A stretch of 24,000 bases of DNA from positions 59,029 through 83,028 of the forward strand of contig JAUQPH010000006.1 of assembly GCA_030550455.1 (NCBI GenBank), given 5' to 3'. Origin of the DNA: Thermoproteota archaeon (lineage in GTDB: Archaea; Thermoproteota; Thermoprotei_A; Sulfolobales; NBVN01). Position numbers and translations under genes: made by a program. The notes beneath the pieces were generated by a model. It saw only the letters and a list, made by a program, of their open reading frames with translations, was not told where the DNA came from and made no database searches. Shown here piece by piece: positions 2,532 through 9,273 of the stretch. Position 1 is the stretch's first letter. The number at the start of each line of letters is the position of its first letter.

Positions 2532-3373
2532 TCTTCACCACCTCCAAAAGCTTTAGAAATGTACTTACGATATATCTCTATATACCCGGGTTCGTCTTTC
2601 TCAACGAACTCCCCAATGACAAAGCCTTTCTCCCAGTCGTAATCGCTTTCGTCTACAGACGGCTTAGTTTTTACTACGACTCTTTTCTTGAGCTCTGTAT
2701 ACAGGTCTACGGGGTTTCTTAAGCCTATGTGCCTCCCGAAGATCTCCGGGCATGTCGATAAGACCTCGATAAACGCAAGTCCCTGCTTTACGAGAGCCTT
2801 ATAGAATACTTGCTCAAGTAAGTGTGGGTGGGTAATCGACCCTCTGGCTACGTAGTTTGCCCCTAAAGCTGCTGCCAGTTTCACCATGTTGATCTCCTTT
2901 TCAGGGTTTCCGTAGGGTGTAGTCGTAGTGTAGAGCCCTCTAGGAGTTGTAGGTGCCAACTGCCCGCCAGTCATTCCGTATATCATGTTGTTTACCATTA
3001 CGACAAGTATATCGGCATTACGCCTTATGGCGTGTAGTATGTGGTTTCCACCAATAGCGGCTATATCTCCATCACCTCCAACTACGATCATCTTCATTTC
3101 CGGCTTGACTACCTTAACTGCGAGAGCGAACGGAATTGCTCTTCCGTGTATTACGTGAGCAGAATCAAAGAGAGGATAGAGAGTCATTCTAGCTGTACAA
3201 CCTATCCCTCCAACAAAGGCTATATGCTCTCTCTTGAGTAGGCCCTCCTTTATCCTTCTGTCTATAGCTCTAAGTAAAGTCCCTAATACCACCCCTAGCC
3301 CGCAACCCGGGCACCACATCGTCGGTATTCTATCTGTTCTCAGGTATGGGTCAAGCGGGTGTCCTACAGCCAT
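2528..3373 (-). CDS. 2-oxoacid:ferredoxin oxidoreductase, beta subunit (thiamine-diphosphate binding)
   Basis: 281-aa ORF. WCPGCG near the N-terminus and a GGDGD TPP-binding motif. Overlaps the alpha gene by 10 nt. Confidence 0.9.
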   Translation of the reverse strand: MAVGHPLDPYLRTDRIPTMWCPGCGLGVVLGTLLRAIDRRIKEGLLKREHIAFVGGIGCTARMTLYPLFDSAHVIHGRAIPFALAVKVVKPEMKMIVVGGDGDIAAIGGNHILHAIRRNADILVVMVNNMIYGMTGGQLAPTTPRGLYTTTTPYGNPEKEINMVKLAAALGANYVARGSITHPHLLEQVFYKALVKQGLAFIEVLSTCPEIFGRHIGLRNPVDLYTELKKRVVVKTKPSVDESDYDWEKGFVIGEFVEKDEPGYIEIYRKYISKAFGGGEE

Positions 3374-4488
3374 TCTTTAATCACCTCGACTACTTCTTGC
3401 GGTAGGGGTACATCGAGGTCTATCAAAGGTACGCTGACGACTTCCTTATCTCTAATCACACCCCTGAGCTCTCTGTAGTACAACCCTAAGTTGTTTTCAA
3501 CCACAAACACCTTCTTAACACCTCTCAACAGGTTTACTATGCCATCCTCATACACTGGGAAAAGAGTCTTAAGCTTTACGGAGCAGGCACGATATCCCTT
3601 CTCTCTGAGTAACTTAGCTGCGACATTCGCTGTTAAAGCTGTTGACCCATAAGAGACGAGGGCGTAATCGCAATCGTCAAGGTACGTCGAAGAGTAGTCG
3701 AAGAGCTTCCCAGAGTTCTCTACTATCTTTTTGTAGAGTCTCCACATAAGCCTCCTTTGTACGTCCGTTCTTGGTGCGTAGTAACCTCTTTCATCGTGTG
3801 TTAGTGACTCAACTAAGACGTTGTATCCTTCACCGAAGCATGCCATAGGCGGTACTAACCCGTTAACAGGGTCGTAAGGTTTATAGGCATCGGGAGGCAC
3901 AGAGGGCTTAGTGCGGTCGATTAAATCTACTTCACTTCTCTCCCTTATAGCTACCTTACCATAGGTATGAGCTATTACTGCGTCAGAAAGAAGAACTACA
4001 GGAGTCCTCAACATCTCCGATATGTTGAAAGCTCGTATCGTCAAGTCGTAAGCTTCTTGTGGTGTCGATGGAGCGAGAACAGGTATCACGAGACCCCCGT
4101 GAAAACCGTACGTACTTTGGAGTACATCATACTGTCCCGACCTCGTTGGGACACCTGTCGATGGACCGGTCCTCATGACGTAGGCAACAACCAGCGGAGT
4201 TTCCGTTATAACCGCTAGACTTAGAGCCTCGAGCATGAGTGAAAACCCGGGTCCACTGGTTGCCGTCATCGATTTCGCACATGCCCAAGACGCCCCGATT
4301 ACGGCGTTTATAGATGCTATTTCGTCTTCAAACTGTATTACGTGACCCCCGTGCTTAGGTAGCTCTTTAGCTAGGTACTCGAATATATCAGATGTCGGTG
4401 TAATCGGGTAACCAGCATAGAACTTTAACCCAGCAGTTATAGAGGCTTCGGCAATAGCTATGTTTCCAGTAAGGTATTCGTACCTCAT
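3364..4488 (-). CDS. 2-oxoacid:ferredoxin oxidoreductase, alpha subunit
   Basis: 374-aa ORF. The N-terminal GNIAIAEASITAGLKFYAGYPITPTSDI is typical of OFOR alpha subunits. Its ATG overlaps the stop of the delta gene (ATGA at 4485-4488). Confidence 0.9.
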   Translation of the reverse strand: MRYEYLTGNIAIAEASITAGLKFYAGYPITPTSDIFEYLAKELPKHGGHVIQFEDEIASINAVIGASWACAKSMTATSGPGFSLMLEALSLAVITETPLVVAYVMRTGPSTGVPTRSGQYDVLQSTYGFHGGLVIPVLAPSTPQEAYDLTIRAFNISEMLRTPVVLLSDAVIAHTYGKVAIRERSEVDLIDRTKPSVPPDAYKPYDPVNGLVPPMACFGEGYNVLVESLTHDERGYYAPRTDVQRRLMWRLYKKIVENSGKLFDYSSTYLDDCDYALVSYGSTALTANVAAKLLREKGYRACSVKLKTLFPVYEDGIVNLLRGVKKVFVVENNLGLYYRELRGVIRDKEVVSVPLIDLDVPLPQEVVEVIKEWL

Positions 4489-4715
4489 CGCCGAACAGCC
4501 TCGATATATATTGCGAAATCAGGACAACTAAATTCACAAAGCCTACAGCCGATGCACTTTTCCGGGCGAGCTGGAACTACGTACCTATAGCCTCGCTTGT
4601 TCCTACTGTCACCTCTCTCCAAGACCTTCGTGGGGCATACTGATATACATATGCCACACTCTTTACATCTTTCGGTTATAACGTTGATAACATACTTACC
4701 TCCTTCTCTCTTTAT
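4485..4715 (-). CDS. 2-oxoacid:ferredoxin oxidoreductase, delta subunit (2x[4Fe-4S] ferredoxin); start codon unresolved
   Basis: Not in the ORF track. My translation of the minus strand gives ...KYVINVITERCKECGICISVCPTKVLERGDSRNKRGYRYVVPARPEKCIGCRLCEFSCPDFAIYIEAVRR*, with two CxxCxxCxxxCP motifs. The stop TGA is at 4487-4485. No in-frame ATG, GTG or TTG lies upstream of the first cluster, so the 5' coordinate is only the limit of plausible coding sequence. Confidence 0.7.
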   Translation of the reverse strand: MKREGGKYVINVITERCKECGICISVCPTKVLERGDSRNKRGYRYVVPARPEKCIGCRLCEFSCPDFAIYIEAVRR

Positions 4716-4719
4716 AAAG
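4710..4719 (-). promoter_or_regulatory. TATA-like box (palindromic CTTTATAAAG) upstream of the OFOR operon; a second candidate CTTTAAATAG lies at 4772-4781 (minus sense)
   Basis: A/T-rich octamers upstream of the first operon gene. GGAGGT (4698-4703, minus sense) lies between the TATA box and the ATG at 4693. Confidence 0.35.
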
Positions 4720-4862
4720 AGACTCGACGCAGTGCTCAGCCAACTCCACCTATATGATTACTTGAGCATAACTATTTAAAGCATGAGTTATTAACTGTAA
4801 TTACATGAGGGTTAGTGCTAAAAGCACAGCGACATAAAGAACTCGAACTCAACTTGGTCCAC

Positions 4863-5243
4863 AGGGTTTAGCTCTGATGCGAGCTCATACTAGGTCATCT
4901 CATTACCTCAACACTTCTCTCCCTCATTTCGTTCGTAGATTCATTGAGTCGGAGGTGTTCAAGGGGTACTCACACCTCGATTCATCCCGGGGAGGGCCTG
5001 CGTCTCATTGACGGGACTCTAACCACCTCATACGGTAGCCTCCACGCATTAATCAAACAATATAAGCCAATACAGAATGCGAAACAGTTTCCCGAGGCTT
5101 TACTGACTCGCTATTAAGTTAAACTAGGCTCTCCTCTAAATATGCTAGTAAGAGAGTTTATGATGTTTTAGGTCCTTTCTTCAGTAAGTAAGCGGATGTT
5201 TATGAGGACTATAGCGCTCCTGCTACTTAAATAGAGTGCTTTA
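4863..5243. repeat. Noncoding element, copy A (paralogue of 6689-7033, same orientation)
   Basis: Seven colinear shared blocks with copy B (coordinates in the finding at 4863-5243), spanning AGGGTTTAGCTCTnATG at the left end to AGTGCTTTA at the right end. No ORF of 50 or more codons on either strand. Confidence 0.6.
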
Positions 5244-5248
5244 TCTGT

Positions 5249-5539
5249 TTACCAGCTTCTAACGCTAACCTTCACGATGTTTCCATCGACTTGAGCGACA
5301 GCATGTCCTGCGGAGTACTCTACCTCTAGCTTCAGGATCTTCCCTCCGACAACATCTTCAAGAGCGGAGAGTGACGCTACGGCAATAGCTACTGCTTTTG
5401 CTATAGACCTATTAGCTTCGAGCCTGTCGCCTAGCACATCTATGAGTTCACCGGTTAACCTATCGACTACGAGAACTCTGTCTGGTAACTCGAGTGCCAA
5501 CCTAGCTGGGTTCTGGGTTTTCACGTCGACAGAATCCAT
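5249..5539 (-). CDS. Small hypothetical protein, Roadblock/LC7 (MglB-like) fold suspected
   Basis: 96-aa ORF. The predicted alpha-beta-beta-alpha-beta-beta pattern (LVVDRLTGELIDVLG ... SIAKAVAIAVASLSALEDVV ... KILKLEVEYSAGHAVAQVDGNIVKVSV) resembles Roadblock/LC7 singletons. TATA-like GTTTTTAAAG lies ~35 nt upstream. The family call comes from pattern only. Confidence 0.45.
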   Translation of the reverse strand: MDSVDVKTQNPARLALELPDRVLVVDRLTGELIDVLGDRLEANRSIAKAVAIAVASLSALEDVVGGKILKLEVEYSAGHAVAQVDGNIVKVSVRSW

Positions 5540-5675: not shown

Positions 5676-6494
5676 GTGTGTTGGGGTGTATTAGCTAAGC
5701 TAGTCCGAGTCGATGGTGTTGAGGGTGAAGTGGAAGTTGGGGGAGCTACTATAAGAGCTCTCATTGCGGTAGAGGAGGCTAAACCTGGAGATGTAGTGCT
5801 ACTTCATGCTGGTGTAGTCATAGAGAAACTAGATAGAGAAAGTATTCTGGCCAACCTTACTGTATACTACGACTTAGTTAAGTACCACTATACCTTCAAT
5901 GGACTAAGCGAGGAGGAGGCAGATAGGAAGGCTCGAGAAGACCTTGTTAAGCTAGCTCAAGACCTAGGTATTTCACCTGAGGAGTTACTAGAAGTTCTGC
6001 GAGAGAATATGCGAGAGCAAGAAGACAAGGCATCTAAGCAGGAAAGTGTGCCGGAGTCGTCGTTTTTTATAGACTACGTAGTCCAGCTAGCTGAGACAGA
6101 CTACCTCCAGGTTATGCACTACACAAACTATATCAGAGTTTGCGAGAGGGCTTTCATGGCCATGCTGTCTAGTGCGGGTATTAGTTACAGTAGGCTAATA
6201 CACGAGTACGGTTTGTTTATTCCTACAGTTGAAGTTAATGCGAAAATAAAGTCTCCGTCGAGGCTCGACAATACCTTGAGGGTTTACGTGTGGATAGAGG
6301 AAGTAGGGAGAAAGCACCTTAAGTATAGGTGTGTAGTTCACAATTTGACTACTGATAGAATCGCTGCCGATATAGAGCACGTCGCAGTCTGCACGGATAC
6401 TGCGATTACATCGAGCCACGAGCTACCAGAGGACATCAAAAAAGCCCTGGAAACTCTTTCTCGCAGTGATAGATCGCTGAAACAGCATAGGTAG
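5676..6494 (+). CDS. Fusion protein: N-terminal HypC/HybG/HupF-like domain, helical acidic linker, C-terminal 4HBT/YbgC-type hotdog acyl-CoA thioesterase
   Basis: 272-aa ORF with a GTG start, giving the N-terminal Met-Cys typical of HypC (MCWGVLAKLVRVDG...GDVVLLHAGVVIEKLD). The C-terminal half, VVQLAETDYLQVMHYTNYIRVCERAFMAMLSSAGISY...FIPTVEVNAKIKSPSRLDNTL, matches the 4-hydroxybenzoyl-CoA thioesterase pattern (Asp plus His-x2-Tyr region). Confidence 0.7.
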   Translation: MCWGVLAKLVRVDGVEGEVEVGGATIRALIAVEEAKPGDVVLLHAGVVIEKLDRESILANLTVYYDLVKYHYTFNGLSEEEADRKAREDLVKLAQDLGISPEELLEVLRENMREQEDKASKQESVPESSFFIDYVVQLAETDYLQVMHYTNYIRVCERAFMAMLSSAGISYSRLIHEYGLFIPTVEVNAKIKSPSRLDNTLRVYVWIEEVGRKHLKYRCVVHNLTTDRIAADIEHVAVCTDTAITSSHELPEDIKKALETLSRSDRSLKQHR

Positions 6495-6513: not shown

Positions 6514-6688
6514 TAAAGACGGATACGACGTCCTCTCAAGATGAGAACCTTCTTTATAGAAAGTACGGCCATTCTCAGAGCTAGCCGTCGCTCAATGCTG
6601 TACTCTACAGCACGTTTAGCATTTCTAACTCCCGCTTTACTTTGAAAGTACTACTAGAAAAGGGAAGCATTTTACGTGTAGCTGTGTA

Positions 6689-7033
6689 AGGGTTTAGCTC
6701 TTATGTTGGTTTGTATTGATTTCATCGCCCCACATAATTCCCCCACACTCTGCTCAAGCTCTCATCGGGTACCCTTAGACTCCCCCATCACGTATCACTA
6801 CGTACGGAGTGCGAGAGTTTCATCCCATATCAACAGATGTGAACAAATATGAAACCTAAAAGTTGCGCTAGGTGAGCTCAATATCAGCTATAAGAAAGCG
6901 GTGATAAACGTCTGCGTAACTAATGTATGGAACTAAGAGAGTTTAGTTAAGAGCTTTTTATGTCCGCAGATCGCTATCGAGAGTAAGATGCCGTAGACTA
7001 AGTGCTTGGTTACTGTAAGGTTTAAGTGCTTTA
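6689..7033. repeat. Noncoding element, copy B (paralogue of 4863-5243, same orientation)
   Basis: The same seven colinear blocks as copy A (coordinates in the finding at 4863-5243). Partly overlapped by a 66-codon minus-strand ORF that is not conserved in copy A. Confidence 0.6.
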
Positions 7034-7194
7034 AGAACGTAGTTACTAGTTGGTGATGACTCCGCCGAACATGATCGATGAAGTAAGGACTCGAGCACTG
7101 ACTACTTTCAGAGAAGAGCGCGTCTATCATCAATCAACTCTGGTCTGTCATCATCTTCTTGTTTAAACTTGATTCAGTAAAACTTATAAGCATA

Positions 7195-7224: not shown

Positions 7225-9273
7225 ATGCTGGCACTAGTGCTGAGTGCTGTAGCAGGTGGACTAGTACTAGCTTATACAGTATACTTAGCTACATCCGTCA
7301 TGAAGTATCCCGCAGGTACTGGACGAGCCGTCGAGATCCACGAGTTCATTAAGGAGGGTGCCAGTGCTTACTTAAGGAGACAGTATGGAGTTATAGCACT
7401 AATATCCGCAGTGCTTGCTGTATCTATCTTCGCTGTAAACTTGTTTACCGGGAAGTCGGTACCCTGGAGATCCCCCCTCGTTTTCCTTCTCGGTACCGCA
7501 TCCTCTATGATTGCCGGCTACTTCGGTATGTCTGTAGCTACTAGAGCGAACGTGAGAACGGTTAACGCAGCCGTTAAGAAGGGTCTGAAAGACGCCTTCG
7601 CTCTAGCCTTCAAGGGAGGACTCGTCATGGGGTTGACTGTAGCAGGTTTAGGGACTCTCGCCATCGCGGCACTCTCCTTAATATTCGGACTAACTGAGGA
7701 TACTGTTAGAGACCTAGTGTACTACGCTTTCGGTGCTTCAGCCGTGGCACTGTTCGCTCGAGTAGGTGGTGGGATATATACGAAAGCTGCTGACATAGGT
7801 GCTGATCTTGTGGGTAAGGTTGAAGTAGGTATACCGGAGGACGACCCAAGGAACCCCGGTGTCATAGCGGATAACGTTGGAGATAACGTTGGAGATGTGG
7901 CGGGAATGGGTGCTGACTTATTTGAATCTTACGTTGAGGCCATAGTCTCAACCATGGTCATAGCTCTAGCGCTAGGTGTTGTCGGCTGGTACAACTTCGC
8001 TATACTACCTATATCTGTTTCAGTAGCCGGACTGCTGGCCTCTGCTGCTTCTGTTGCCATAGTCCTCCTCGGGAGAGTTAAAGATCCAGCGCAAACCTTA
8101 ACGCTCTCCAGCCTTGCTTCAGCAGTTATCGTCGCAGCATTCAGCTACTTCGTGTCTACGCACCTACTAGGTGGAGACCTCGGTATTAGGGCGTGGGTTG
8201 CTGTTGTTGCCGGTCTAGTTTCGGGCGTCGTGGTCGGATTCACGAGTGATTACTTCACGAGGAAAGGGCTTCCACCCACTATTAAAGTAGCGGAAATGTC
8301 TCAAATGGGTCCAGCTCTAACGATACTGTCAGGAATGTCTTACGGGTTCATAAGTGTCGTAATTCCTGCTGTCTGCATAGCGTTAGCAGCTCTCTTAGCG
8401 TACTACCTCATGGCCTCCGTCGGAGGCTTTTGGTACGGAATCTACGGTGTGTCACTAGCGGCAGTCGGCATGCTGTCACTAACTGGGTTTGTGGTCGGTG
8501 CGGATGCCTACGGTCCTATCACTGATAACGCTGCAGGATTAGCTGAGCAGGCTGGTTTAGGCGAAGATGTTAGGTCTGTAGCGGACCTCTTAGACTCTGC
8601 CGGTAACACGATGAAGTCCATCTCGAAGGGTTACGCCATAGGTTCCGCAGCTCTAACGGCTCTAGCACTACTAGCAGCCTACGTGAGCATACTACCTAGG
8701 GTCGAAATGGACCAGCTAAGCTTACTTAACCCAACCGTGATGTCCGGTATCTTCATAGGTATGGCTATCCCGGCTCTATTCACGTCAATAGTCATTAGAG
8801 CAGTTAGTGACTCTGCTTTCGAGCTAATATCCGAGATCAGGAGACAGCTAAAAGAGAAACCCGGGATACTGGAGTTTAAGGAGAAGCCTGACTACGGTAG
8901 GGCCGTAGACGTCGTGACTAAGTACGCTATCAAAAGACTGGTAGTGCCGGGTCTGCTTGCTATAATAGTACCTCTCGTAGTAGGACTAACTCTAGGTCCA
9001 TACGCGCTTGCTGGAACACTGGCTGGAGCTATAGTATCGGGACTACTACTTGGCTTATTCCAAGGCAACGTAGGCAATACGTGGGATAACGCCAAGAAGT
9101 ACATAGAGGAAGGACACTTCGGAGGTAAGGGAAGTGAGGCACATAAAGCGGCAGTTATCGGCGATACGGTTGGCGACCCCTTAAAGGACGCGGCTGGACC
9201 ATCACTAAACATCTTGATAAAGCTTATGAGCATAGTTGCTCTAGCTTTTGCTCCAATATTTGCGGCCCTATAG
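7225..9273 (+). CDS. hppA: Membrane-bound ion-translocating inorganic pyrophosphatase (H+/Na+-PPase)
   Basis: 682-aa polytopic ORF with signature motifs [48 protein letters not shown] and [10 protein letters not shown]. Confidence 0.95.

Follow-up and report, generated by a model that had tools for sequence, protein, structure and literature searches.

The 24,000-nt stretch of DNA analysed here (the window) is from an uncultivated archaeon of Sulfolobales/Desulfurococcales type, and the same sequence, at 98-100% identity, is found in six NCBI MAGs (L001-L006) and two JGI metagenome contigs (L141 and L146). Two large intergenic gaps concern us: gap A (~540 nt) follows the pyruvate:ferredoxin oxidoreductase (POR) genes, and gap B (730 nt) separates the gene for a HypC-thioesterase fusion from the H+-pyrophosphatase (PPase) gene (Table 1). 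In the initial annotation, each gap was held to contain one copy of a noncoding element of ~350-380 nt, with seven short blocks common to both copies. Both gaps indeed lack a long ORF, the longest stop-free stretches in A and B being 79 and 56 codons. The sequence CTATTTAAAG, at the POR-proximal edge of gap A, shows little or no variation across four species.

Several features of the gap margins were observed along the way. The POR delta (ferredoxin-like) frame at 4485-4770 on the minus strand is intact and conserved, and has no ATG, GTG, or TTG start; all strains of the window species carry a TAA at codon 4 counted from the start annotated in the relative L007, and the gene is uncalled in six of six MAG annotations. 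Either a non-canonical start codon is used or the upstream annotation in the relatives is wrong. Gap A is flanked by a 20-nt inverted repeat (80% complementary) with arms at 4806-4825 (TGAGGGTTAGTGCTAAAAGC) and 5255-5274 (GCTTCTAACGCTAACCTTCA), of which one lies within the 3' end of the 96-aa ORF and the left one also holds the palindrome GTGCTAAAAGCAC; by chance, ~0.05 such pairs would be expected in the region. In gap B, a 10-nt indel polymorphism (ACGGCCATTC, positions 6570-6579, missing from strains L001 and L004) sits in the otherwise better conserved first 100 nt past the HypC-thioesterase stop codon.

Gap B also contains two C/D box sRNA genes, both with boxes, guides, and an upstream promoter, and with Rfam sR-family matches of 12-26 bits, which is below the gathering threshold. 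In the plus-strand gene, the C box GUGAUGA (7053-7059), a C' box near CGAUGAA, and the D box CUGA (7098-7101) are almost invariant in four species, as are the guides, and L057 has a counterpart. Its promoter sequence GGTTTAAGTGCTTT lies ~29 nt upstream of the C box and is nearly invariant in the window, L007, L008, and L009. The minus-strand gene has the boxes GAUGAUGA, UUGA, UGAUGA, and CUGA; it is conserved in L007 and L008, and its counterpart in L057 (3759-3811) matches Rfam sR47 at 25.7 bits. Both sRNAs are nearly invariant in four to five species while their flanks diverge. The two unannotated genes converge with their 3' ends about 1-4 nt apart; in L007 and L008 their boxes and guides hardly vary, in L009 this holds in part, and the pair is found in L057 at 3759-3865, and one MAG annotation has a spurious 65-aa ORF across it. 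Further downstream, the palindromic CTTATAAG (7183-7190) is conserved in four species. Since the PPase start on the plus strand and the 5' end of the minus-strand sRNA each lie ~25-30 nt downstream of it on their respective strands, it may be a shared, putative bidirectional TATA box.

Table 1. Features of gaps A and B and of the genes around them (window coordinates)
Feature	Coordinates	Strand	Remarks
POR gamma, beta, alpha, and delta genes	delta end near 4700	minus	before gap A
TATA-like motif, conserved	4775..4783	minus	TTTAAATAG on the minus strand; POR-proximal edge of gap A
Copy A	4863..4995	+ (strand of family alignment)	family HMM match 4861-4993; blastn from L093
Rest of gap A, with blocks 4-7 of copy A	4996..5248	.	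spacer DNA, outside the demonstrated repeat
96-aa gene	5249-5539	minus	after gap A
HypC-thioesterase fusion	5676-6494	plus	before gap B
Copy B	6689..6797	+	family HMM match 6687-6797; blastn from L093
Rest of gap B up to the sRNA promoter, with blocks 4-6 of copy B	6798..7017	.	spacer, outside the demonstrated repeat
Promoter of plus-strand C/D box sRNA	7018..7033	+	BRE/TATA-like GGTTTAAGTGCTTT; holds block 7 of copy B
C/D box sRNA	7050..7104	+	weak Rfam sR5 match, 15.3 bits; boxes present
Second C/D box sRNA, convergent with the first	7106..7158	-	Rfam sR5, sR2, sR18, and sR30 at 12-17.5 bits
PPase (H+-pyrophosphatase) gene	7225-9273	plus	after gap B

In the direct comparison of the two gaps, all seven blocks were found where they had been reported, and they are collinear. 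The sole blastn matches between A and B were a 17-mer (16/17 identical; E 0.003-0.02 in the A x B search space and 0.7-1.0 against the whole window) and a 20-mer (17/20; E 0.03-0.06 and 1.9-2.7, respectively), and nhmmer with the --max option and A as the query did not recover B. The soft gapped alignment of the copies scored 419, above the 309 +/- 24 of dinucleotide shuffles (z 4.7; range of soft alignments, z 4.7-5.3), but among all pairs of 380-nt segments of the window the A-B score of 376 ranked only second of 15,006, behind a chance pair at 381. Taken alone, the sequence similarity of A and B is thus marginal.

The relationship was settled by a third sequence. An exact-pattern scan of metagenomes with block 1, the other matches of which were mostly chance, located L093, a contig from an Ignisphaera-like organism (its aldehyde:ferredoxin oxidoreductase, AOR, shares 87-89% identity with Ignisphaera proteins). 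The 17-mer of L093 continues into extended likeness to B (TTGATTTCATYGCC, TTCCCC, and TCATCGGG). With the L093 element as the blastn query, B was matched at E 2.5e-8 (72% over 86 nt) and A at E 1.8e-7 (66% over 114 nt). Because L093 matches both, homology between A and B is established transitively for blocks 1-3, and chance similarity of these blocks is refuted. To this extent the proposal that the gaps contain paralogous noncoding DNA in the same orientation proved correct.

An HMM of three sequences then recovered a further copy, one that lacks the seed, in L057, where it sits just ahead of POR delta; this relative has a HypC-thioesterase of 65% identity. The G/C-rich core of ~65 nt in the L057 copy is 82% identical to that of L093 over 63 nt. 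Extending the analysis outwards from the window within the MAG yielded two more: copy C (nhmmer E 0.015) precedes an MFS transporter gene in a gap of 364 nt, and copy D (E 0.009 and 0.04), whose core can be recognised, occupies a gap of 348 nt; the assignment of C and D rests on these modest E-values together with visual collinearity. The search for additional homologous copies in this genome and in relatives, which had been suggested as a check, thus yielded C, D, L057, and L093 with its close relative L182, and the repeat family is represented by about six independent loci in all. In the window genome, at least four copies (A, B, C, and D) occur within ~44 kb, all in large intergenic gaps. 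A scan with block 1 of a genome collection that does not include the window species gave 45 matches, nearly all in unrelated organisms, and these are essentially chance. One exact 17-mer match, in an Acidilobaceae MAG (L019, 3595-3611), is intergenic: a TATA-like TATTTAGT immediately precedes it and a nicotinate phosphoribosyltransferase-like ORF lies downstream. The similarity beyond the 17-mer (GATTCTCGCTCAT) is weak, an unconvincing extension, and the match is either a very diverged family member in a relative of high G+C or chance. No sequence related to the repeat was present in a phage collection, a plasmid collection, or viral contigs.

The family members also delimit the repeat, which is considerably shorter than the ~350-380 nt first proposed. 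L093 resembles A and B over the first ~90-115 nt, and homology could be shown for the first ~110-130 nt only, i.e. for blocks 1-3 (4863-~4995 and 6689-~6797). As judged from these alignments, the repeat unit is ~110-130 nt long, with an approximate 3' end near CACATC. Its 5' boundary is sharp and falls at AGGGTTTAGCTCT, upstream of which A, B, and L093 have nothing in common. From there the layout is AGGGTTTAGCTCT, TTGATTTCAT(Y)GCC, and a core that is best kept as CATCCCGCTCGGGG..TCATCGGGCTTRGGGGCGTTYRGGA.CACCCC..CACATC. This GC-rich core is retained in L057, where it has four G-runs, and in L093, and is degenerate or deleted in A, B, and C. In copy A, block 1 (AGGGTTTAGCTCTGATG) is followed by TCATCTCATTACCTCA and by a degenerate core in which C/G positions are largely T/A relative to L093 and L057, whereas in copy B block 1 is followed by TTGATTTCATCGCCCCA and by a core with an 18-nt deletion.

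Blocks 4-7 are a different matter. They are missing from every other family member (C, D, L093, and L057), and for this part the A-B score (287) is on a par with those of unrelated genomic segments (289 and 277). The remainder of gap A resembles neither L093 nor L057 (z 0.07 and 0.6), and that of gap B is partly alignable to the orthologous gap of L007 at a roughly neutral identity. The paralogy is thus real while the ~350-380 nt extent, given that blocks 4-7 are absent elsewhere and score at background level, is not, and chance is the best account for these four blocks only. The remaining ~250 nt of each supposed element would be ordinary, fast-evolving spacer, which in gap B leads into the promoter of the conserved C/D box sRNA. 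The initial annotation had also read a TATA box and initiator on the minus strand; in copy B, however, GGTTTAAGTGCTTT is conserved in four species upstream of the plus-strand sRNA. Block 7 of B lies within this promoter and is explained by another gene, so that the minus-strand reading is not needed.

We found no indication that the repeat is a structured RNA, as had been suggested from its short blocks, in the Rfam searches, the folding and covariation analyses, or the polymorphism data. MFE z-scores of A and B on both strands were -0.2, +1.1, +0.9, and +0.2, and those of the better-preserved cores ranged from +0.05 to -1.7. The covariation check gave RNAalifold energies of -4.06 and -7.54 kcal/mol for five copies, with a positive covariation term (no bonus), and no pairs were predicted across seven copies. 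The G+C contents of A (44%) and B (43%) are below the window average of 46.6%, unlike stable RNAs of thermophiles. Rfam, run in gathering and E-value modes on the window, L093, and L057, returned nothing for the element, the lone match in the gap A spacer being a weak SNORD65 hit (19 bits, E 0.78), and a tRNA/tmRNA scan found none. By inspection, no set of C box (RUGAUGA), D box (CUGA), C'/D' boxes, and guides was present on either strand of A, B, L093, or L057. Readings of the core as an H/ACA RNA, a tRNA fragment, a CRISPR leader, or a replication origin were likewise set aside, as inspection revealed no defining motifs.

Coding capacity was equally absent from the sequences compared. A six-frame comparison of A with B gave no similarity at the protein level, and Pfam matched no ORF on the plus strand of A or B; among the minus-strand frames (those of A, B, and L093, plus one of L057), a radical-SAM fragment was the sole match. 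Between L093 and L057, no small-ORF or synonymous-change pattern was seen, the plus-strand frames being judged by eye. That fragment is part of a 90-codon ORF of L093 (467-739, minus strand), which encodes no more of a radical-SAM protein than its N-terminal CxxxCxxC portion (Pfam E 0.005) and is truncated and pseudogene-like, located between the AOR gene and the repeat copy. As a candidate parent gene it was rejected: nothing in the window matches it, and a full-length homologue was not retrieved. A reading of the repeat as a TnpB/IS605 right end was also dropped, because the frames tested with Pfam contained no protein remnant. With no Rfam match for the element and no Pfam match for the frames tested in A and B, the description of the sequence as previously unrecognised stands.

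We considered polymorphism among four haplotypes of the window species. Segregating sites made up 8 of 385 positions in A (2.1%) and 10 of 345 in B (2.9%), compared with 18 of 776 four-fold degenerate sites (2.3%); in the rest of gap A, 5 of 252 sites were polymorphic. Polymorphism in A and B was therefore indistinguishable from neutral, and purifying selection relative to neutral sites was not detected in either. Block 1 itself varies among strains in B (e.g. AGGGTTCAGTTCT) and in C, and differs by three changes in 13 nt between L093 and L182. Between these two contigs, the element differs at 21 of 136 positions (15.4%) and flanking noncoding DNA at 23 of 531 (4.3%; p 2e-5). The rise in divergence starts exactly at block 1, which marks the element as a discrete unit and fits an exchange among multiple genomic copies better than it fits purifying selection. 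Selection, instead of recent spread, could account for the 82% core identity of L057 and L093.

The copies occupy unrelated sites and are oriented differently with respect to their neighbours. Copy A adjoins POR and points away from it, while the L057 copy is upstream of POR and points towards it; B is upstream of the C/D box sRNAs and the PPase gene, C precedes the MFS gene by ~120 nt, D is ~600 nt from the next gene, and the L093 copy is downstream of the AOR gene and the radical-SAM fragment. Close relatives may have no copy at the corresponding place. L008, L009, and L055 share the gene order of the window and lack the element, gap A measuring 161-202 nt in L008/L009 and 225 nt in L055, and gap B ~350 nt in L008/L009 (the L055 contig stops before gap B). 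In L007 (89% protein identity), both gaps are expanded and have diverged past detection by the family HMM. L056 (82% protein identity to L057) is without the element at the POR site, and L183 and L184, which are close to L093 (AOR 94% identical), have a PaREP1 gene in its place. Upstream of POR delta, L056 has a 618-nt gap (2915-3532) with no similarity to gap A, in which the 60-nt POR promoter alone is conserved (at 92%, compared with L057); the site looks like a hotspot of noncoding-DNA turnover.

Altogether, we favour the view, with a probability of roughly 60%, that A and B are neutral relics of a short, dispersed, probably once mobile intergenic repeat. They would be two of at least four copies in this genome, and the repeat would be common to Ignisphaera-like and other Desulfurococcales-type archaea. 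We infer that the copies spread by a duplicative, probably transposition-like process as a non-autonomous element, and that A and B are now functionless, old copies decaying neutrally. This is consistent with the occurrence of the copies at unrelated intergenic sites, in both orientations relative to neighbouring genes and variably present among close relatives, with their making up much of the unusually large gaps, and with their neutral rate of evolution and the loss of the G/C runs of the core in the window species. With respect to miniature elements of the MITE type, the repeat is small (~110-130 nt), dispersed, and without ORF or Pfam signal. Scans of A, B, L093, and L057 for terminal inverted repeats yielded none in which the 3' end of the unit would pair with block 1; what they did yield were matches of 6-10 nt, for instance TAAGGGT/ACCCTTA in B. 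Inspection of the flanks of A, B, C, L093, and L057 gave no shared direct repeat that would represent a target-site duplication, the 3' end of the unit being approximate. Since neither terminal inverted repeats nor target-site duplications were found, we have not filed the repeat as a MITE.

The main rival explanation is that the repeats are a family of fast-evolving small RNA genes with their own promoter, of which A and B are functional or recently inactivated members. Block 1 would then be a BRE/TATA element on the plus strand, with a start near TTGATTTCA. Block 1 (GTAAGGGTTTAGCTCTT) does resemble the conserved C/D sRNA promoter GTAAGGTTTAAGTGCTTT and aligns with the TATA-like CTTTAAAA of L057, ~25 nt upstream of the core, for which reason some copies may be transcribed. 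The conservation of the core between L057 and L093 would also suit an RNA gene, as would one compensatory change in a UUCGGG/CCCGGA hairpin and the GAGGUGU/ACACCUC hairpin retained in A, both noted by eye, and fast evolution is common among sRNAs. Nevertheless, we regard this possibility as unlikely: a consensus structure, a fold z-score signal, and C/D or H/ACA boxes (by inspection and Rfam) are all wanting, A, B, and C have a degenerate or deleted core, the G+C is below the genome average although the host is a thermophile, and polymorphism is neutral, with block 1 itself polymorphic in three lineages. Hardly credible any more is the model of the initial annotation, namely a ~370-nt structured RNA or cis-element array, with a minus-strand transcript running from a TATA box TAAAGCACT and initiator TAGTC to an end near AGAGCTAAACCCT. 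The blocks on which it was built exist in collinear order, and their alignment beats shuffled sequences, but blocks 4-7 occur in no other family member and do not exceed genomic controls, block 7 of B belongs to a plus-strand sRNA promoter conserved in four species, and neither strand gives a fold or covariation signal while both copies evolve neutrally.

If the copies were instead cis-regulatory modules, i.e. portable promoters, or sites bound by a common regulator, close to genes of transport and ferredoxin-linked metabolism, one would expect what is seen at some loci: a promoter-like block 1, the A and L057 copies adjoining the POR promoter, C shortly upstream of the MFS gene, and B upstream of the sRNAs and the PPase gene. 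This explanation is nonetheless improbable, because orientation and distance are inconsistent (A points away from POR, the L093 copy is downstream of AOR, and D is ~600 nt off), the orthologous promoters of the relatives work without the element, and the motifs are polymorphic and evolve neutrally. Marginally less probable still is a derivation from a decayed protein gene or from an insertion sequence end including the 3' end of a transposase gene. The sharp homology boundary is reminiscent of an element end, a radical-SAM N-terminal fragment is found directly beside the L093 element, and the minus-strand open frames of B and L093 both stop at a TAA within block 1. That fragment, however, is unmatched in the window and is the only Pfam match in the tested frames, a 4-nt indel between B and L093 shifts the frame, A and B are not similar at the protein level, and among the substitutions that separate L093 from L057, third codon positions are not clearly favoured (6/13, counted by hand). 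Finally, the marginal direct statistics for A and B, and the preponderance of unrelated organisms among the 45 pattern matches, would be expected if two A/T-rich, promoter-laden spacers were similar by coincidence; as an account of the repeat this is very unlikely, given that L093 matches A and B significantly and that the family HMM recovers more copies.

A more speculative reading, which we consider rather improbable, is that the repeat is a still-active element of a kind undescribed in archaea, which populates most of the large gaps in Ignisphaera-like genomes and of which A and B are older insertions. One possibility for such an element would be a self-copying small RNA gene with a promoter; another would be a mobile element without terminal inverted repeats, with a G-run core that might form a G-quadruplex.

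The neutral dispersed repeat that we favour has partial parallels among known systems. C/D box sRNA gene duplication has reportedly been described for Pyrobaculum, and the repeat resembles such duplicated or mobile archaeal sRNA genes in its promoter-like start, similar to the adjacent C/D box sRNA promoter, and in its dispersed copies near gene ends and promoters, but it differs from them in having no C, D, C', or D' boxes, no H/ACA features, and no Rfam match. With bacterial REP/ERIC sequences it shares short length, intergenic location, G/C-rich palindromic segments, variable copy number, and scattered distribution. REP/ERIC families usually show some constraint and conserved hairpins, whereas no hairpin is conserved across the copies of the repeat, and its host is archaeal. 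A resemblance also exists to palindrome-associated elements derived from IS200/IS605 and to the right ends that encode TnpB omega-RNA: read on the minus strand, a G/C-rich segment leads to a sharp boundary without terminal inverted repeats. In contrast to those ends, there is no TnpB/TnpA remnant in the frames tested and no conserved terminal hairpin. Desulfurococcus MITEs are said to have been the subject of Ravin et al. 2009. Archaeal MITEs include the SM1-SM4 families of Sulfolobus solfataricus and have also been reported in Desulfurococcus kamchatkensis (PMC10969869). Like these, the repeat is ~110-130 nt long and noncoding, with several intergenic copies per genome, discrete boundaries, presence or absence among close relatives, and decay after insertion. 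Unlike them, it has no terminal inverted repeats beyond a 6-7 nt match of the GGGTTT/AAACCC type, no target-site duplication was seen on inspection of the flanks, and no related insertion sequence or transposase was identified.

These results show how short collinear blocks in A/T-rich spacers can exaggerate the size of an element, and as a by-product they add two unannotated, well conserved C/D box sRNA genes in gap B. In this compact archaeal genome, repeat copies together with fast-turnover spacer explain several gaps of 350-750 nt. The repeat is potentially a new family and a marker of genome dynamics in uncultivated Desulfurococcales-type archaea, and it may point to the enzyme that mobilises it.
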